This document shows, in pieces, positions 13,740-56,243 of a DNA stretch of 64,000 nt (positions are counted from its first letter, which is position 1; each line of letters starts with the position of its first letter). The notes beneath the pieces are model-generated. The model searched no databases. It had not been told where the DNA came from and worked only from the letters and a program-made list of their open reading frames with translations. The position numbers and the translations under genes are program-made. The DNA is from a virus (Duplodnaviria; Heunggongvirae; Uroviricota; Caudoviricetes). The stretch lies in the IMG/VR virus record IMGVR_UViG_3300021255_002251; one strand, written 5' to 3'.

Positions 13740-16700
13740 GGTTCTTCGTTCCCTTCATTGGCATTATTCACCAAGTTGGTCCCTGTATTAATCTCATGCA
13801 AGATGTTTTCCAGATTTGCCAACTGTGCTTCCAATGCCGCAACACGATTGGATAAAGCAACTAGTTGACTATATAAGGTGTTTGTAGCGGAATCCGTATA
13901 GTTGGTAGCACCATTCGCTACCGCATAGTCCTTTGCATCGACATAAGCCCTGACTGTAGGTATGACAATATTTATCTTGTTTTCTACATGCTGGCTCAAG
14001 TTGGTTTCCCCTATCCAAAAGTTGTCTATGCCCCCAATTGGATTGATGTTGAATGAGCCTACACCATGAGACTGGTACTTCGGCAATGCAGTTATCTCAC
14101 TTGCCGACATGGCTTGGTAGTTAGTTGGATAGTAGTTCCACACGAACGCCCCTTGATTAGTGGCAGATGCGGTCGTTCCTAGCATTATTGAATTACGGGC
14201 TTCTAGTCCAGCATTATGGCCGACTCCCATCATGTATGCTTCGTCGGAAGAAGAGTTGTTGTAAGTTCCAAAGATATAGTTTAGCCTTTTGTATTCCGCA
14301 TTGTTCGAAGACCCAAGAGAAAAAGAGTTTGTCCCGAGAATATTAGAACTGCCAAGGGCAATAGATCCTTCGCCAGCGGAATTTCCAGAACCTAGGGCTA
14401 GAGAGTGATCACCAATGAAATTATTCTGTCCTATGGAAAATGAGAAAGCTCCCATGCTTCCTGTAAAACCGATGCCAATTGACCCGAATTCGGAAACAAA
14501 GTCTTCTCCTATGACTAAAGAATATGAATCGGCTGTTATGCCTAAGCCAAACCCGGAAGAAAAACTTCCCACTGTATTCTGCTCTCCAAAAACAGAAGAA
14601 AAATCACCGGCGGAAATCCCGATTCCGAAAGCCGTGCTGTGTCTCCCTATTGAATTATCATAGCCGAAGATTGCAGCGTAGTCATCTCCAGCATTTGCTA
14701 ATCCGAAAACAGCAGAACCGAATTTTACTGAATTCGTGAATTGTTCATCTCCAAAAACGATGGAGTTGGCACACCCTTCGGATACTGCACCTATAACCAA
14801 GTTGCTAAATCCGCCATCGACGTGCCACCGTACCACATTAGATATGTTAGAACTTGTAACAAGGTGGTCTCCATTAGCAATCGGCTTGTTCGTGAGAAAA
14901 TCTCTTCTGGCGGTTATAGTTCCACCGGGGACCATAAATCCTATCTCATCATCGTTATCGCTTCCCGGCTCATCGGTTGAATACTGAACACCGTTTTCCG
15001 TATAATACAATGTCCATAAGCTGCCCGTCCTGATGATATAAAGGTCCAACATACCTTGCGGTACGTTTGAGAATTTCCAATCGGAAAATCCAACCCCGTT
15101 AGTGTATACTGCCATATCCGTCTTTTGCCGCATGTTGTTGGTTGCATACGAAATATCGGAAAGATAGGCAAGCTGGGAGACGGAAACATCACCCGTCTGT
15201 TCGTCATAAGAATGGACACTCCATCTTCCGTTATAAAAGATACCGGTGTTTCCGTCCGTAAGTTCTCGGGCGGAATCCGCATTAAGTGCTTCCTCCGCAT
15301 ATTCACTATGTCCGTTGAAAAACCATAGATTATCAATTGAACTGAAATAGAAGGGGGGCATTGCGGCCTCTCCGTTGGCCGTCATGAGGGAATTTGTTAC
15401 ACGGTCTACATAGTTTGTGGCTGGCGTGAGATCTACAGTAGGTGCGCCAGTTATGACGGAATATGGGATTGAGTTTGTTGGGTATGGAAGCCTATCCTGC
15501 TTTTGAGAATCTACTGTTGTAGGCAGCCACTCAACATTATTGCTAGAAGGGGGACTGTCTCCTGGCTCGAGCGGAGCATTCGCCTTCCATAGTTTACCAG
15601 CATATGATACTACCTCTCCACGCAGATATGACTCCGACGACGACCATTGTTGATAGGCGCTAGATGCATCTAGCTTGTTGGACACTGCCATGTCCGTGTA
15701 GTTCGTAGAGGCTGTCGCCGCATTACTCACATCCGTATGCATGGCATATACTGAAAGATTTGGTGTCCCAGATATGGAAGAGTAAGGAATGGCATTAGTT
15801 GGATACGGAAGTTTCGTCTGATAGAGCGACAGGTTCGGAGTACCGCTTATCACCGCATATGGGATTGAGTTAGTTTCATATGGCAACTTATCTTGCTTCG
15901 CTGAAATTGCCGTATCCTGCATCGAGTTTGTCTCTACGGCCCTGTCAATCGTTTCTAGTATATCTACCCCGTTGACTCTGATAGAGCCCCTACTCGCGCC
16001 CTGCGATGCCCCGCTTATTGTGATTCCACCATTAGAATCATAATTGTCGTTGACAACTAAGGAGCCTCCTGCATAGTGTCCTCCTCCTATTGAAAGTTGA
16101 GGCTCTAGGAAATCCTCATCTCCGCCGATAAGAGCAAGCCGACTATTGTTGAAACTTATACCGCCATTCTGCGAAACTGGCAAATACCCTCCAAGGTCGC
16201 TCTCCAACGCAAGCGTATCTCCCGCCGTACTAACCGACGTGACCTCCCTAGAAAACGTAAATATTGTTCCTTCTATGTCCTTGACCAAATTAGTTGCATT
16301 TGAATTGCTCGATATGATATATACCGAGCTTCCTGAATATGCATACCATCCCATGCCATCCCATCCGCTTCTCCCGCCGAGTTCTTCCTCGCTCGTCACC
16401 CATACTGGGAGACCGTCAATGTCATAATTGTCGTCAGACCTCGTATACGACCAGTCCCCGAAGGTATAGTTCGCAACCGTAACCGTTCTGTCAGAATTGA
16501 TTACATTGATGCCGTCGGTGATTCTCTTTATTGACTGAGCAATAGAATCCGTATAATTTGTCCCATCCTTGGCCGCCGCGTTCACTTCCGAATGAGTAGC
16601 ATAGCCAGAAAGAGACGGAGTTCCAGAAATGGCTGCATAAGGAATAGCATTCGTTGGATAGGGAAGCCTGTCCTGCTTCAGCGAATAGATGAATACTTCT

Positions 16701-49773: not shown

Positions 49774-49944
49774 AGGCGGGGTGTACTAGCATCTCCCAAG
49801 AAGGTGGAAGAGACATAGGAACACCGGCTGCCCAAAGAAGAGAAAAGGAGCGGGAAGTATTTTCATTGATTAACAGTCAAGTGCCCAAAGGGCTTAATAG
49901 GAACTTCCTATGCTCAAAAAACCGTGTGCGATGTGTATGTCTAG

Positions 49945-50018
49945 TCAATCGCTCTACCACCTGAGCTACACGAACAGCTAAGCCGTCCATGGCAGGACTC
50001 GAACCCGCGACTAATTGA
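49945..50018 (-). ncRNA. permuted tRNA-like unit 1: 3' half (T-arm 49992-50008, acceptor-3' 49985-49991), 9-nt linker, 5' half (acceptor-5' 49969-49975, D-arm 49950-49968)
   Basis: In the minus-strand RNA the order is TCAAT-TAGTC-GCGGGTTCGAGTCCTGC-CATGGAC-G-GCTTAGCT-GTTCGTG-TA-GCTCAGGTGGTAGAGC-G-ATTGA. The acceptor strands pair 7/7 (GTTCGTG with CATGGAC, including G-U pairs) and the anticodon-stem halves pair 5/5 (ATTGA with TCAAT), but only in permuted order. Confidence 0.35.
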
Positions 50019-50264
50019 TTTCAGAAATAGGAACACAATATGCACACCTATGGTAAACGGCGAGAAGTATCTGAACCGAAAGAAGCCTGTGGCTTCTTGA
50101 TGGAGTCGAACCATCAAGTAATAGGAACTTCCTATGCCGTAAAATCAACAGAGACGGAGAGTAAATGACACATGGTTGTTGCCACGTGCTTCGTTCGCAG
50201 CGAATGATAGGAACTCTCGATGTCTCTAAAATGAACATGAAAACGAAAAGCGGCGGAATGTATT

Positions 50265-50338
50265 ATAAGGCGCTCTACCACTGAGCTAAATGGAGGCATA
50301 AGCCATCCACTACGGGATTCGAACCCGCGACCTCCTGC
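50265..50338 (-). ncRNA. permuted tRNA-like unit 2 (same 3' half, 9-nt linker, 5' half architecture)
   Basis: CCCGT-AGTGGAT-GGCTTATGC-CTCCATT-TA-GCTCAGTGGTAGAGCG. The acceptor pairs 6/7; the linker has the same length and the same GGCTTA start as unit 1. Confidence 0.3.
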
Positions 50339-50568
50339 TTACCAGGCATTAATAGGAACATTCTTTGCCGCAAAAAGAGATTTGTGCGAGTAGTATGGAT
50401 TTCATGGTGGAGGCTTATGCCGCGCCCCCAAGCGGTTAATAGGAACTACCTCTGCACAAAGAAATAAAAAGGGCGGAGAGTATCTTTCATCCAAAGAAAA
50501 ATAGGAACCCTCTTTGCCCAAAAATAGTTTTCAATTCATACGCCCCACTCGAGGGACGACCTAAACGA

Positions 50569-50641
50569 TGAAACCAGATGGACTCGAACCACCTCCTTCC
50601 AACGATTAATTGGAAATGCTTTCCTGTTACACCATGGTTTC
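50569..50641 (-). ncRNA. tRNA-like gene with an unusual anticodon loop (UUAAUCG) and no encoded CCA
   Basis: Acceptor GAAACCA / TGGTTTC pairs 7/7. T-arm GGTGG-TTCGAGT-CCATC. The anticodon stem TCCAA/TTGGA encloses TTAATCG, which has a pyrimidine at position 37; the anticodon assignment is ambiguous. Confidence 0.35.
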
Positions 50642-50867
50642 ACGTGGGAACTTTCCGAGTACCCAAAACTCCTGTTCCTTTGCGATACATGCGGTCTCTG
50701 ATATCTCCCAAGCCGAGCTTCCAGAAACAACTTGTAAACACCCATCGCATGAACAGCCTATCTCTTCAGTGGACCGTCACCGGATTAGCACCGTGCTGCC
50801 AGACCTATCGTTGCATGCTTGATTAGCACCCCTTGTACTTCGGGGCCGAACAGCCTGACTCTAAAGA

Positions 50868-50942
50868 TGGAGCAAGATGCCGAACTCGCATCGGCGTAAA
50901 CTACCTTGGAAGGGTAGCGCATAACTTCTCTGCCAATCTTGC
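50868..50942 (-). tRNA. tRNA-Gly(TCC)
   Basis: Cloverleaf by hand. Acceptor GCAAGAT/ATCTTGC, anticodon arm CTACC-CTTCCAA-GGTAG, T-arm GCCGA-TGCGAGT-TCGGC, CCA encoded. Confidence 0.7.
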
Positions 50943-50947
50943 AAAAA

Positions 50948-51022
50948 TGGAGCGAACTACGGGATTCGAACCCATGACCTCATCCTTGGCAAGGATACGT
51001 ACTACCACTGTACTAAGTCCGC
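50948..51022 (-). tRNA. tRNA-Gly(GCC)
   Basis: Acceptor GCGGACT/AGTTCGC (G4-U69), anticodon loop TTGCCAA, T-arm ATGGG-TTCGAAT-CCCGT, CCA encoded. Confidence 0.8.
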
Positions 51023-51113
51023 ATTTGCCCCTTATCCCACCACTTTCAGCGGGGGCTACCTCGTTTCCTCATATAGACCGACAGAGCGGGACTCCGGCGG
51101 AGAGGCTTCTAAA

Positions 51114-51189
51114 TGGAGCGACAGATGGGTTACGATCCCACGACATCAACCTTGGGAAGGTTGCACTCTACCAACTGAGTTACTGTCGC
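51114..51189 (-). tRNA. tRNA-Gly(CCC)
   Basis: Acceptor GCGACAG/CTGTCGC, anticodon arm CAACC-TTCCCAA-GGTTG, CCA encoded. Confidence 0.8.
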
Positions 51190-51196
51190 ATGAAAT

Positions 51197-51276
51197 TGGT
51201 GGAACCGATGGGAGTCGAACCCACTATTTGTCTGCTTGCAAAGCAGATGCCTTTACCACACTCGAGCCACGGCCCC
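51197..51276 (-). tRNA. tRNA-Ala(TGC)
   Basis: Acceptor GGGGCCG/CGGTTCC with G3-U70, anticodon arm TCTGC-TTTGCAA-GCAGA, CCA encoded. Confidence 0.75.
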
Positions 51277-51587
51277 ATTGAAAATGTTTACCAGCGGTTC
51301 TCAGATGCTTTTAGTTTTGTGGTATCGCATCCACAAACTTCAACCGCAGTCATAGCATCATTAGGCTCTTGGATTCGATAGGCATACATCCCATTCGGGC
51401 ATCGCTACCGTTCATGCCTAAAGTTTGGTTCTGCCTTACACGTTTCCTGCAAGGTGGAATCCAATGGTATGCAGAATTTAGCCTTTTGAGCCTATCTGCG
51501 TCTCGCCGCAATGTGAAATCCATCACTACAATGAGGAGCGACATCAAGGTCGGGACTCTTGTTGTTTGAACTAATACCATCAGAAAT

Positions 51588-51661
51588 TGGTGGACACGTT
51601 GAGAATCGAACTCAAGTCTTCTCGTTGCGAACGAGATGTTCTACCACTGAACTAGCGGCCC
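51588..51661 (-). tRNA. tRNA-Ala(CGC)-like; acceptor stem imperfect
   Basis: D-arm, anticodon arm TCTCG-TTCGCAA-CGAGA and T-arm TTGAG-TTCGATT-CTCAA are canonical. G3-U70 is present, but the 5' GGGCCGC versus 3' CGTGTCC strands leave three mismatches at positions 5-7. Confidence 0.45.
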
Positions 51662-51804
51662 ATGAAAATAAAGGACGATTGTCAAGAAGGACATCGTATT
51701 TCCATTAATGCCCATCACGTTTTCTTTCCCCAACTATTCACCCCAACGAAATCATTGGAATTGGGAAATGATAAACACTGATTTTGTCACAACCGCCATG
51801 GAAA

Positions 51805-51878
51805 TGGTGGACACGGCAGGAATTGAACCTGCATCTCTTCTCTGCCAGAGAAGCATTCTACCGTTGAACTATCGGCCC
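51805..51878 (-). tRNA. tRNA-Ala(GGC)-like; acceptor stem imperfect
   Basis: Anticodon arm CTTCT-CTGGCAG-AGAAG, T-arm GCAGG-TTCAATT-CCTGC, G3-U70 present. 5' GGGCCGA versus 3' CGTGTCC gives the same mismatch pattern as the Ala(CGC) gene. Confidence 0.45.
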
Positions 51879-51891
51879 ATTGAAATCGTTT

Positions 51892-51968
51892 TGGTGGACC
51901 CTGTAGGGAACGATCCTACAACCGTCTGGGTATGGGCCAGATGCTCTAACCAATTGAGCTAAGGGTCC
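51892..51968 (-). tRNA. tRNA-Met/Ile2(CAT), elongator type
   Basis: Acceptor GGACCCT/AGGGTCC (G1-C72 paired), anticodon loop CCCATAC, CCA encoded. Confidence 0.8.
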
Positions 51969-51973
51969 GAAAT

Positions 51974-52051
51974 TGGTCGGAGTGGAGGGATTCGAACCCC
52001 CGACGTTCTGCTCCCAAAGCAGACGCTCTGGCCAGGCTGAGCTACACTCCG
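51974..52051 (-). tRNA. tRNA-Pro(TGG)
   Basis: Acceptor CGGAGTG/CACTCCG, anticodon arm TCTGC-TTTGGGA-GCAGA, CCA encoded. Confidence 0.8.
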
Positions 52052-52056
52052 CTTGA

Positions 52057-52128
52057 AGCCCCCTGTCGGAAACGAACCGACGACCTCCATCTTACCAAGA
52101 TGGCATTCTACCACTGAACTAAGGGGGC
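52057..52128 (-). tRNA. tRNA-Thr(GGT)
   Basis: Acceptor GCCCCCT/AGGGGGC, anticodon arm CCATC-TTGGTAA-GATGG, no encoded CCA. Confidence 0.8.
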
Positions 52129-52131
52129 GTC

Positions 52132-52206
52132 TGGAGCCCCCGCCTAGACTCGAACTAGGAAATCCACTGTACGAAAGTGGCGGTTTTCCATTACACCTAC
52201 GGAGGC
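52132..52206 (-). tRNA. tRNA-Thr(CGT)
   Basis: Acceptor GCCTCCG/CGGGGGC (one G-U pair), anticodon arm CCACT-TTCGTAC-AGTGG, CCA encoded. Confidence 0.75.
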
Positions 52207-52214
52207 AAGTCTCA

Positions 52215-52302
52215 TGGAGCCAAGGAGCGGATTTGAACCGCTGTGTCCTTTCGGAGCGGGTGTACAAAACCCGTGCAATCAGCCAGACTATGCGACCTTG
52301 GC
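52215..52302 (-). tRNA. 88-nt tRNA with long variable arm (type-II-like) and apparent anticodon TGT (Thr)
   Basis: Acceptor GCCAAGG/CCTTGGC. A perfect anticodon stem CGGGT/ACCCG encloses TTTGTAC. A 14-nt extra arm CTCCGAAAGGACAC follows. T-arm AGCGG-TTCAAAT-CCGCT, CCA encoded. Confidence 0.5.
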
Positions 52303-52307
52303 AAAAT

Positions 52308-52382
52308 TGGCGGGGCTAGCGGTAATCGAAACCACATCAGTAGCTTAGAAGGCAACTGCTCTATCCGTTGAGCTATAGCCCC
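52308..52382 (-). tRNA. tRNA-Arg(TCT)
   Basis: Acceptor GGGGCTA/TAGCCCC, anticodon loop CTTCTAA, CCA encoded. Confidence 0.75.
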
Positions 52383-52391
52383 TCTTTGAAA

Positions 52392-52468
52392 TGGTGCGGG
52401 AGACTGGAATCGAACCAGCAACCTACAGTTTAGGAAACTGCCGCTCTGTCCGATTGAGCTACACCCGC
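52392..52468 (-). tRNA. tRNA-Arg(CCT)
   Basis: Acceptor GCGGGTG/CTCCCGC (one U-U mismatch), anticodon arm GCAGT-TTCCTAA-ACTGT, CCA encoded. Confidence 0.75.
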
Positions 52469-52470
52469 AT

Positions 52471-52548
52471 TGGTGAGGCTAGTGAGAATCGAACTCACAC
52501 AAGTCCTACCTTCGGAGGGTAGCGCTCTCTCCATTGAGCTATAGCCTC
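52471..52548 (-). tRNA. tRNA-Arg(CCG)
   Basis: Acceptor GAGGCTA/TAGCCTC, anticodon arm CTACC-CTCCGAA-GGTAG, CCA encoded. Confidence 0.8.
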
Positions 52549-52551
52549 TTC

Positions 52552-52627
52552 TGGTAGGGACGGACGGAATCGAACCGCCGACATATTCCGTGTAAAGGAA
52601 TCGCTCTGCCACCTGAGCTACATCCCC
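52552..52627 (-). tRNA. tRNA-Val(TAC)
   Basis: Acceptor GGGGATG/CGTCCCT (two G-U pairs), anticodon arm ATTCC-TTTACAC-GGAAT, CCA encoded. First gene of the array downstream of promoter 53101-53139. Confidence 0.8.
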
Positions 52628-54140: not shown

Positions 54141-56243
54141 CTACCCTCTAGGAGGAAGTTGTGGTTGTGCCTGAGGAACTTGTTGCGGCTGCTGGGCCTG
54201 TGCTTGAGGTTGTTGCCCCTGCTGTACCTGTGGCTGCTGCTCGGCTGGTGCTGGTACTTCCTGCCCAGTCTTCTTAAGGAAGTCCCTCATCACGCTCTTG
54301 AAAATTTCGTCGTTCTTCTGGACTTCTGGCGGCAGTTCTGGTGGAGGCTGTTCTCCTCCCTGACCAGGGATCCCGCCTCCCATGCCGCCGTCCATCCCTC
54401 CCGGCATTCCGGGCATTCCTCCTTGTTGGGCTGATGGGTCTTTTGCTTCCTCTATCTTGGTGAGGATTTCTGGAATGTCTGTCGGAATCGTCTGGAAAGC
54501 TGGGAGATTCGTCTTGCGGAGCATCGCACGACCTTCCGCAATGTCAATGAGTCCGGTATTGATAAGGTGAGCAACATACTGTGCCGTCTGCGAACTCATC
54601 TGTGCAACTTCGGACTCCTTCGGAACGTCGATAGGATTCCATTCTATGTCTAACTTCATGTCATCCTTGTCTGGATAGTTCGACGCACAATAAAGTTCGT
54701 AGAACATCTTGCACAAAGGAGTATAGTCGTTATTCTGGATAGCCTTTAGAGATTGGGCATAGTCGTCCCATTCGTATTGTCCTGTTGCCTGCAAGCCAGA
54801 AGGAACGTTTTTCAGCAACTTAGTGACAGGAATCTGTGCAATGGCAGCAACCAACTGATACTGCGACATCGTAAGAGGTGTGAGTTCCGACAGGTTCGTA
54901 TCCAACTGCGTCACGTTCGAAGACGGCTTCTTCACGAATATGGAGAAGTTGTCGCGGAAGAAGTTTATGGCATTGAAGAACTTGTTTGTACGGGCTGGGT
55001 CTGACTGCAACTGCTCAAGGTTTCCGTCTGCAATCAAAAGCCTCTTTGTCATTGCTAGGAGCGGTGCTTCATTAGCCAGTTTGTCCGCGGCCCACACTCT
55101 TTCATAAATCATCTGCGTCAAAGACAGTCCGCCATAGAGATACACCGGCTTGAAGATGTCAGGCAACTCGGAGTTTATTTTCCTTATAACCCAAGAGCGG
55201 TGGACTCTCTCTTCTCCTACCTTTATCCATGTAGGCTCTAGGAAGTGCGGTGAGAGTGGATTGGTTCGGCTGTCCTTGTCCCACTGGTAAGTAAGCCAGT
55301 GAGGGTCTATGACTGCAAAACCTTTGAACGAACCTGGTTTTATGGCTTTAGGATCGTAAGGGTCTGCATAGCTATATGGGGTTTTACCTGACTTGTCTGA
55401 TGGAGATCTATAATCATCCCTAAACTTCACCCATGGGATTGCGACACCAACGCCAAACACCTTCTTCTTGTAGTTTAGACGAATACATGCTTCGTTCAAC
55501 CCCATCCTATCGGCGGCTTTCTTAATCTCCGTCAGGAAATCTGCTTCCGCAGCATCATGCTCGTTGCTATGTTCATGCTTTGTAGATGAGCAGACGACCT
55601 TGTAACCATGTGCCATGGCATCTTCTGCAGGAATCATGCAGGCACGATTCACAAACTCATGTGTTGCTATGATTGCGCATCCCGTATATGTAATCCAAAT
55701 ACGAGATTGGAAGTGCTTGAGAACTCTTGGATTTATCGGGAAGCGTAGAAGAGGGTCTGGAAGCATCGCAAATCCGCCACCCTCTAACCCAGCATGAAGC
55801 CCCTGCCGTGGCGGATAACATCTCTGAGAACTTCTCGGAACGGCTCCCGGAAGATTTCCGCTTATGTTTCTCGGAAGAACGGACGGCTTTCCCGTAGGCA
55901 CACCATCTCCCTTTCCTCCAGTAACATCGTCCATCGTTGGGACGCTCATATCAACCATGTCGGTTTTTATGGGGAATGGGTCAACACCATCCTGTACCGC
56001 CTTGAAGAAGTCTGTAAGTCTGACTGGAAACAACTTGTCGATTGCCTCGGTGTACTCCTCATCCGTCATGGCGGATTCATCCATTACAGGGAACTCTCCA
56101 GAACCAGAATCAGGAGAGAACCCTATGCCGTCCTCGATAGCCTTCCTCATCTTCTGGATAGCAGATGGCTCACCCTCCGACCTCCCATGCTTCTTGTATT
56201 TCGGCTGGTCTTTCTTGCTACCTTTATGGAATAATCCGAACAT
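54141..56243 (-). CDS. large virion-type protein, possibly the portal; C-terminal Gly/Pro/Gln-rich low-complexity tail
   Basis: 700 aa. The central region is of portal-like size and composition. The C-terminal GGMPGMPGGMDGGMGGG...QQPQAQAQQPQQ tail is low-complexity. The assignment is tentative. Confidence 0.4.
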   Translation of the reverse strand: MFGLFHKGSKKDQPKYKKHGRSEGEPSAIQKMRKAIEDGIGFSPDSGSGEFPVMDESAMTDEEYTEAIDKLFPVRLTDFFKAVQDGVDPFPIKTDMVDMSVPTMDDVTGGKGDGVPTGKPSVLPRNISGNLPGAVPRSSQRCYPPRQGLHAGLEGGGFAMLPDPLLRFPINPRVLKHFQSRIWITYTGCAIIATHEFVNRACMIPAEDAMAHGYKVVCSSTKHEHSNEHDAAEADFLTEIKKAADRMGLNEACIRLNYKKKVFGVGVAIPWVKFRDDYRSPSDKSGKTPYSYADPYDPKAIKPGSFKGFAVIDPHWLTYQWDKDSRTNPLSPHFLEPTWIKVGEERVHRSWVIRKINSELPDIFKPVYLYGGLSLTQMIYERVWAADKLANEAPLLAMTKRLLIADGNLEQLQSDPARTNKFFNAINFFRDNFSIFVKKPSSNVTQLDTNLSELTPLTMSQYQLVAAIAQIPVTKLLKNVPSGLQATGQYEWDDYAQSLKAIQNNDYTPLCKMFYELYCASNYPDKDDMKLDIEWNPIDVPKESEVAQMSSQTAQYVAHLINTGLIDIAEGRAMLRKTNLPAFQTIPTDIPEILTKIEEAKDPSAQQGGMPGMPGGMDGGMGGGIPGQGGEQPPPELPPEVQKNDEIFKSVMRDFLKKTGQEVPAPAEQQPQVQQGQQPQAQAQQPQQVPQAQPQLPPRG

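Follow-up and report, generated by a model that had tools for sequence, protein, structure and literature searches.

How can a tRNA serve the phage that encodes it, if the two strands of its acceptor stem seem not to fit each other? This question is raised by two alanine tRNA genes in a 64-kb stretch of phage DNA (64,000 nucleotides, referred to below as the window), which have the 5' acceptor strands GGGCCGC in Ala(CGC) and GGGCCGA in Ala(GGC), and whose 3' ends are identical, CGTGTCCACCA, with CGUGUCC-A-CCA as the strand that faces both. In the standard register pairs 1-4 form, while 5:68, 6:67 and 7:66 are non-pairs in both genes. An earlier note, made from the letters alone, had described two Ala tRNAs with canonical arms, the G3-U70 pair, these strands and identical 3' ends, and direct reading confirms this description as well as, for the standard register, the mismatches at positions 5-7. 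As causes it had put forward gene conversion or a shared 3' module on the one hand, and a need for editing or repair on the other.

The two genes and their acceptor helix

The window belongs to an uncultivated jumbo phage and contains a portal gene (Phage_portal_3, 54141-56243, minus strand), which is 99% identical to its counterpart on the 251.8-kb IMG/VR contig L011, while among cultured phages the closest portal protein shows no more than 35% identity. Some 1.5 kb downstream of this gene, likewise on the minus strand, comes the tRNA array, which holds isoacceptors with U34, C34 and G34 for each of Gly, Ala and Thr together with three Arg tRNAs (UCU, CCU and CCG). The features of concern are the following.

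50567..52627, minus strand: tRNA array, 16 tRNA genes grouped by amino acid (ARAGORN and Rfam)
51805..51878, minus strand: tRNA-Ala(GGC), 74 nt including the encoded CCA (Rfam RF00005, 49.2 bits)
51588..51661, minus strand: tRNA-Ala(CGC), 74 nt including the encoded CCA (Rfam RF00005, 50.4 bits; ARAGORN)
51813, minus strand: bulged unpaired U of Ala(GGC), in the 3' strand, with G69 on one side and the G partner of C5 on the other
51596, minus strand: bulged unpaired U of Ala(CGC), at the same place in its 3' strand
51197..51276, minus strand: tRNA-Ala(UGC) of the same array (ARAGORN; Rfam, 44.4 bits; direct reading)

Both bulged genes score well over the gathering score of the Rfam tRNA family (RF00005), which is 29 bits. 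On direct reading their D, anticodon and T arms are normal, G3.U70, A73 and the encoded CCA are present, and the universal tertiary bases U8, A14, G18G19, U33, G53 T54 T55 C56, A58 and C61 are found in both; the alanine identity set (G3.U70, A73 and an NGC anticodon) is complete in each gene. The exact 11-mer at the 3' end occurs twice in the 64-kb window, in these two genes only, and a search upstream of either gene for a 5' strand complementary to CGTGTCC (that is, GGACACG) found none. What both genes lack is an uninterrupted 7-bp acceptor stem (1-7 with 66-72). In fact, once a single U of the 3' strand is skipped, the acceptor reads G1-C72, G2-C71, G3.U70, C4-G69, bulged U, C5-G, G6-C, a helix of 6 bp with a one-base bulge just below G3.U70/C4-G69 in both genes. 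N7 remains unpaired (C7 in Ala(CGC) and A7 in Ala(GGC), giving C.A and A.C), since base 65 (A or C) cannot pair with it and closes instead a normal T stem of 5 bp, GCAGG/CCUGC in Ala(GGC) and UUGAG/CUCAA in Ala(CGC). The stack of acceptor and T stems consequently has 11 bp plus the bulge, against 12 bp in a standard tRNA. An extended or shifted T stem that would absorb the mismatch was also considered, and was rejected because the relevant bases are unable to pair.

The minimum-energy fold of Ala(GGC) given by RNAfold is a cloverleaf with exactly this 1-nt bulge, and in either gene a version with a 4-bp acceptor stem comes out 2.2-2.6 kcal/mol less stable than the bulged one. The statement of the earlier note that only positions 1-4 pair is hence right for the standard register, but does not hold when the U is looped out, where C5-G and G6-C form according to RNAfold, RNAalifold and the energies. 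As a contrast case, the seven acceptor pairs of the neighbouring Ala(UGC), GGGGCCG/CGGUUCC, follow one another without interruption and include G3.U70; the D arm of this gene is atypical and its variable loop has 6 nt.

The same bulge in other phages and its covariation

To see the two genes among their relatives, IMG/VR was scanned for a T loop followed by CGTGTCCACCA, with ordinary tRNAs that have a complementary 5' strand being kept, and at least about 30 tRNA-Ala with 5' GGGCCGN were found among the matches listed. With the pattern narrowed to GGGCCG ... T loop ... CGTGTCCA, 115 viral stretches were found, and two patterns for variant stems added 29 (GGGTC ... GTATCC) and 50 (GGGCCH ... 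GTGTCC). After filtering, for which a T stem and an NGC anticodon were required, there were 99 distinct bulged tRNA-Ala sequences from 182 viral stretches, many of the source contigs being 100-480 kb long. For most of these sequences pairs 1-5 and the bulged T were fixed by the search patterns, and only pairs 6 and 7, an unbiased Ala(UGC) sample and the phiEa21-4 gene found by BLAST are free of this bias. The helix GGGCCG / CG-U-GUCC is common to the orthologues of the window genes and to the Ala(UGC) genes of many distant phages, and in many relatives N7 pairs with the base preceding CG, giving 7 bp plus the bulge with a T stem of 4 or 5 bp. One phage, L057, has bulged Ala tRNAs with all three anticodons UGC, CGC and GGC.

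The bulge is present in cultured phages as well, although BLAST for cultured-phage orthologues of the two window tRNAs themselves gave weak partial matches only. In Vibrio phage KVP40 (AY283928, 175581-175655) the acceptor is GGGCCGU / G-CG-U-GUCC, with G-CG-U-GUCCACCA as the 3' part, the anticodon UGC and N7 paired; this copy is 100% identical across 21 Schizotequatrovirus genome records. In Erwinia phage phiEa21-4 (EU710883, 22235-22311) and its many Ounavirinae relatives the same bulge sits in a stem of another sequence, GGGUCAG / CUG-U-AUCC, with CUG-U-AUCCACCA as the 3' part, the anticodon UGC and N7 again paired, and here the phiEa21-4 T stem has its full 5 bp, so that the U is a pure one-base insertion.

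The pairing predicted by the bulge can be followed through this family. Pair 6:66', the 3' base of which is free in the pattern, is G-C in 55 sequences, A-U in 35, U-A in 4 and C-G in 1, so that it is paired in 95 of 95. Pair 7:65' is paired in 83 of 95, where G-C, C-G, U-A and U.G all occur and the non-pairs are G.A together with the C.A and A.C of the window genes. Under the bulge model pairs 4, 6 and 7 covary, and over the 17 distinct acceptor combinations 97.5% of the cells are paired, against 63% in the standard register; the covariation score of 0.451 was matched by none of 500 shuffles. When the 3' partners are slid by one column, pairing under the bulge model falls to about 35%, and for either tested structure in either direction it lies at 34-69%. 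G3.U70 is invariant in all 99 members, but it was fixed by the search patterns.

Moreover, in the unbiased sample of phage Ala(UGC) genes, which was defined solely by the anticodon loop, the T loop and UCCACCA and comprises 116 distinct sequences, 97 have a perfect uninterrupted 7-bp stem and four have a stem that becomes perfect only when a U after pair 4 is looped out. These four stems all differ from each other (GGGCCAU/AUG-U-GUCC, GGGUCAC/GUG-U-AUCC, GGGUCGG/CCG-U-AUCC and GGGCCUG/CAG-U-GUCC). Given 13 diverse members and no hint of the structure, RNAalifold predicted a cloverleaf with a one-base bulge, and its consensus has compensatory changes at 16 of 22 pairs. As for the identity of the extra base, replacing the bulged T in the pattern by A, C or G gave 3 stretches with 2 distinct tRNA-like sequences (one with C, one with A), against at least 21 distinct sequences with T; the extra base is thus usually U, though not always.

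Two other accounts of the stems have to be weighed against these data. One is that the register is shifted by one, the first G being nucleotide -1 and the stem being G-C, G-C, C x U, C-G, G.U, C-G. It is what the programs propose for Ala(CGC): ARAGORN detects this gene with its start at 51660, one base late relative to 51661, and the Rfam alignment starts at 51660 too, in the shifted register and with 2 non-pairs. However, such a shift would destroy G3.U70 and separate the acceptor and D stems by just one base, and it works worse for Ala(GGC); it fails in the GGGUC.../...GUAUCC members (C x A at the fourth pair) and wherever N7 is G, and the one-column slides described above cost a large part of the pairing. 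With the family covariation rejecting it, we regard the shifted register as very improbable.

The other account takes the mismatches to be real in the primary transcript and supposes that the acceptor stem is mended afterwards, by editing or repair of the kind found in some mitochondria. Where acceptor editing is known, its targets are the first three 5' positions or the 3' ends of overlapping genes. The non-pairs of the standard register, being at 5-7 only, could be read as a patch awaiting such correction, but pairs 1-4 are intact and the irregularity is internal, so that the window genes have neither the mismatches in the first three pairs nor the truncated or overlapping 3' end of acceptor-editing substrates. 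Moreover, in the bulged register the two strands covary as they are encoded, with compensatory changes at 6:66' and 7:65', a match that rewriting of the 3' strand in the RNA would not maintain. The encoded sequence already forms a stable bulged helix, and the need for editing or repair suggested by the earlier note falls away; there is hardly any probability left for it.

A similar outcome is obtained for the identical 3' ends. The isoacceptors of tRNA-Ala normally have a common acceptor stem, because this stem carries the identity signal for alanyl-tRNA synthetase (AlaRS). The identical 3' ends of the two window genes would then reflect a shared, constrained acceptor helix, and not the trace of a recent duplication, since beyond the acceptor strands Ala(CGC) and Ala(GGC) have no more than 63% identity. 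With this divergence, and with the helix being common to distant phages, recent gene conversion or a mobile 3' module is not needed as a cause, although the Ala genes of an array may have exchanged sequence by conversion at some earlier time.

Conservation among orthologues and restriction to phages

Orthologues of Ala(GGC) are found in L011, L038, L057 and L111, and those of Ala(CGC), with about 92% identity, in L057 and L111; in both sets the changes lie at paired stem positions, largely so for Ala(GGC). For example in L111, the gene order is the same, with GGC and then CGC about 145 nt on, and the identity to the window is 85% for Ala(GGC) and 92% for Ala(CGC), against 57% for the spacer and 62% for the downstream flank, the differences being mostly at paired positions of the anticodon and T stems. 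L038 and L057 show the same pattern. In this comparison, which the earlier note had named as a test, the orthologues carry the same non-standard stem and not a fully paired one, so that the stem of the window genes is no assembly artefact. The 147-nt spacer between the two genes has conserved content only in the 98%-identical relative, and none in L111 or L057.

That closest relative (L011/L012, about 98% identical DNA) behaves differently. Its Ala(GGC) carries U33C and C61U. In L011 the likeness to the window breaks off precisely where the following Ala gene begins, and this gene is not Ala(CGC) but a standard Ala(UGC) with the stem GGGCCGG/UCGGUCC. These differences may mean that constraint is relaxed or that genes turn over in this lineage, and the array is evidently being reshuffled.

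The genes could then be pseudogenes or decaying duplicates, as the annotation of the KVP40 copy, 'tRNA-Pseudo-1 / tRNA-OTHER', implies; it would agree with this that ARAGORN misses Ala(GGC) and that the L011 copy has U33C and a G53.U61 pair. Against decay stand the compensatory changes, which are found in each of the four stems and also in the acceptor pairs of the bulged register, the far better conservation of the tRNAs than of their flanks, and the presence of every universal tertiary base. Neither uncompensated stem disruption nor drift like that of the flanks, by which a pseudogene would be recognised, is found in the window genes, and we consider decay quite improbable. As judged from these alignments, the bulge-bearing architecture is conserved and upheld by compensatory evolution. 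The remark of the earlier note that this is not random decay is well borne out, with an architecture that is conserved and covaries across many phages.

We further searched 596 Gb of bacterial and archaeal genomes with the strict motif and obtained 30 stretches. About 20 of them are chance matches without tRNA structure, and the other about 10 are real tRNA-Ala, all of them on contigs of metagenome-assembled genomes (MAGs) and in stretches with 5 to 26 tRNA genes for many amino acids. Such mixed tRNA arrays are a signature of phage DNA, and no cellular core tRNA-Ala with the strict motif was found in the 596 Gb. The bulged class thus seems essentially confined to phages and almost absent from cellular genomes. 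Within the same arrays, perfect internal 3' bulges are rare in other isotypes, according to a CCA-anchored survey that is rough and covers ARAGORN-detected tRNAs only.

Relation to known tRNAs and possible function

By all criteria tested but one, the unbroken acceptor stem of 7 bp, the window genes are tRNA-Ala. They are like the standard bacterial and phage tRNA-Ala (RF00005) in the cloverleaf, the tertiary bases, the NGC anticodon, G1-C72, G2-C71, G3.U70, A73, CCA and the location in an array, and unlike it in the unpaired U after 4:69 with a helix of 6 bp plus the bulge. With the KVP40 and phiEa21-4 copies they share the bulged-U acceptor helix and the setting in a phage tRNA array, whereas they differ from them by the anticodons CGC and GGC in place of UGC, by the unpaired N7 and by a different body. 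The tRNA-like domain of tmRNA has no anticodon arm, whereas the window genes have a complete one; tmRNA matches on the two genes were none, and the neighbouring Ala(UGC) gave one of 25.4 bits, which is sub-threshold.

Among natural tRNA-Ala the acceptor helix also varies in geometry where the G.U pair is displaced. The mitochondrial tRNA-Ala of Drosophila has G2.U71. In the human mitochondrial tRNA-Ala the displaced pair is G5.U68 (PMC6451123). In these cases, however, it is the G.U pair itself that moves, with a co-evolved synthetase, while the bulged class has G3.U70 at its usual position and departs from the standard helix beneath this pair. Another kind of variation was described by Mukai et al. 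2017, namely cloverleaves with 8/4 or 9/3 acceptor/T stems, partly from phages and some with a bulged base 51a, of which those bearing G3.U70 were charged with alanine in E. coli (PMC5389517). The bulged class resembles these tRNAs in that pairs are redistributed between the acceptor and T stems and that a bulge is tolerated. They have, however, a 12-bp branch, a longer acceptor stem and a reported bulge in the T stem (PMC5389517), whereas the class described here has its bulge in the acceptor stem and a branch of 11 or 12 bp plus the bulge, and is alanine-specific, and so does not belong among them. A search of full-text literature that included sequence strings, and whose coverage is incomplete so that an earlier mention is possible, found no description of a bulged phage tRNA-Ala. 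The bulged-U tRNA-Ala is, apparently, a widespread structural variant that has so far gone undescribed.

From the sequence evidence taken together, we consider it likely that both genes are working tRNA-Ala of a phage-specific structural class, which has one unpaired U in the 3' strand directly below the fourth pair. Both tRNAs would be cut from a polycistronic transcript of the array and charged by the host AlaRS, which would need little beyond the top of the helix that contains G3.U70. Shi, Martinis and Schimmel reportedly found in 1992 that tetraloop substrates of 4 bp with G3.U70 are charged too. The minihelices, microhelices and bare acceptor duplexes of tRNA-Ala are known substrates of AlaRS (PMC2175331). 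In decoding, the anticodon CGC would read GCG and GGC would read GCC/GCU, by which the alanine set of U34, C34 and G34 would be completed, as the array has it for Gly and Thr. The role in decoding is drawn from the bulged versions with three anticodons in L057, and from the 5-kb tRNA cluster of KVP40 that was inspected, where the bulged copy is the sole Ala tRNA. In particular, the diversity of anticodons in L057 argues for decoding, for which alone it would make sense.

Decoding does not by itself explain why four huge phages (L046, L052, L405 and L429) carry a full standard Ala set (UGC, GGC and CGC) plus a bulged Ala(UGC) with a distinct body. Moreover, the bulge is retained over a core divergence equal to that of standard tRNA-Ala (median core identity 61% among the bulged sequences and 60% among standard phage tRNA-Ala), though a single deletion would remove it. 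Both observations suggest that the bulge is selected rather than merely tolerated. It has most likely been kept since it would change the handling of the tRNA by some factor that binds the acceptor stem, without abolishing the alanine identity; candidates for this factor would be a host tRNA nuclease or toxin, the editing activity of AlaRS, or EF-Tu.

Carried to its end, this line of thought would make the bulged tRNA-Ala a specialised paralogue, the main value of which is not ordinary decoding but escape from a host factor, or a decoy for it, or the donation of alanine to a phage enzyme; in each case the bulge would be what distinguishes it from standard tRNA-Ala. The redundancy in the four huge phages and the retention of the bulge both favour such a role, as do the near limitation of the motif to viral and phage-like arrays and the rarity of perfect internal bulges in other isotypes of these arrays, as far as the rough, ARAGORN-dependent survey goes. 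The KVP40 cluster with its bulged copy only, and the three anticodons of L057, point on the contrary to decoding, and the escape from a host factor is compatible with a working tRNA and not opposed to it. We thus hold a role mainly outside decoding to be unlikely, and keep to working tRNAs as the preferred reading. A related proposal, which we regard as possible though not probable, is that the bulged U marks a distinct phage-borne lineage of tRNA-Ala selected to be distinguishable from ordinary tRNA-Ala. Its members would keep the four-pair signal for AlaRS while the helix below is altered, and might in this way escape a host nuclease, toxin or defence system, or serve a phage enzyme selectively; this would explain the extra copy of the huge phages and the near absence of the class from cells.

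A conserved unpaired base within the acceptor helix is outside the textbook picture of a tRNA, and the class can be regarded as a natural experiment on the minimum acceptor helix that AlaRS, RNase P, EF-Tu and the ribosome require. Phage tRNAs have been reported to evade host nucleases by changes in the anticodon loop. The bulge would be an acceptor-stem analogue of those changes if it is selected for altered recognition by a host factor, and cultured carriers such as KVP40 and the phiEa21-4-like phages make its role directly testable. Common tools miss the bulged class, shift its register or label it as pseudogenes: ARAGORN misses 28 of the 99 bulged tRNA-Ala, including all five with GGC, and the KVP40 copy is unannotated in most of the Schizotequatrovirus records. 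Together with the pseudogene label of KVP40, this means that the alanine-decoding capacity of phages is under-counted. The KVP40 annotation also shows that the gene had been noticed earlier, and was then dismissed.

A swapped cassette in the tRNA array

The tRNA array of the window was compared with that of L011, a 251.8-kb IMG/VR contig which together with L012 is the closest relative of the window (about 98% identical DNA), and a complete divergence was found between window positions 51277-51661 and L011 positions 15186-15360, which sets in immediately behind ATGGGCCG in the second Ala gene, with the similarity returning past the Gly(CCC) gene. The window carries in this segment Ala(CGC), a spacer of 310 nt and an odd Ala(UGC), while in L011 a standard Ala(UGC) comes first and then a tRNA whose anticodon is ATG (called His by ARAGORN). 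The divergent segment is a cassette swap within the tRNA array. Two features on the window side and one orthologue are as follows.

51350-51580, minus strand: ATG open reading frame of 76 codons, in the spacer that separates Ala(CGC) from Ala(UGC)
51197-51276, minus strand: tRNA-Ala(UGC), the third Ala tRNA, with a normal acceptor stem of 7 bp
L011 14983-15046: Ala(GGC) orthologue, found also in L012 and in two other viral stretches, L016 and L076

The predicted reading frame occupies much of the spacer, and it may be spurious. As for the Ala(UGC), its D arm is atypical, combining a long loop with a stem of 3 bp that includes a G.U pair, and the variable loop is 6 nt long; the Rfam scan of the whole window reports it as a tRNA (44.4 bits), and the narrower scans give a sub-threshold match to tmRNA (25.4 bits). 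Moreover, the Ala(GGC) orthologue of L011 has C33 in place of the universal U33, and U61 in place of C61, which leads to a G53.U61 pair.

Unusual alanine acceptor helices in other phages

L006 679-744: tRNA-like element of 65 nt, from a phage contig of 43 kb, within its tRNA array
L132 151-225: annotated tRNA-Ala(UGC) of Pectobacterium phage Wc4 (MN270891)

In the L006 element the alanine acceptor helix is of the bulged type (GGGCCGU facing G-CG-U-GUCCACCA, one U being unpaired on the 3' strand), and a T arm is present as well; within its 65 nt no anticodon arm is recognisable, and ARAGORN makes no call for it. The Wc4 gene, with GGGCGCU on the 5' side and UUUGUCC on the 3' side, is mismatched at pairs 6 and 7, and both remain mismatched under the bulge model.

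tRNA-Ile(AAT) and a repeat cluster with tRNA-like pieces

50567-50642, minus strand: tRNA-Ile with anticodon AAT
49815-50508, minus strand: GTTCCTAT repeat cluster, 8 copies inside 700 bases

The tRNA-Ile is preceded in the array by a spacer of 225 nt, and its anticodon is unusual in bacteria and phages, where GAT or CAT is the usual form. In the repeat cluster, which is present in L011 too (15920-16290), the copies are spaced by 60-145 nt and some of them form the palindrome ATAGGAAGTTCCTAT; the window has 14 copies of GTTCCTAT in all, against 1.8 expected by chance. Between the copies lie tRNA-like pieces in permuted order, namely T arm, acceptor-like hairpin and D arm. For example, the piece at 50265-50336 matches the Rfam family YrlA (Y RNA-like) with 33.8 bits (E = 8e-5), which is sub-threshold given the gathering score of 69, and a second piece is located at about 49950-50030. 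The cluster could consist of genes resembling Y RNAs, in which every gene is accompanied by a phage promoter or processing motif.
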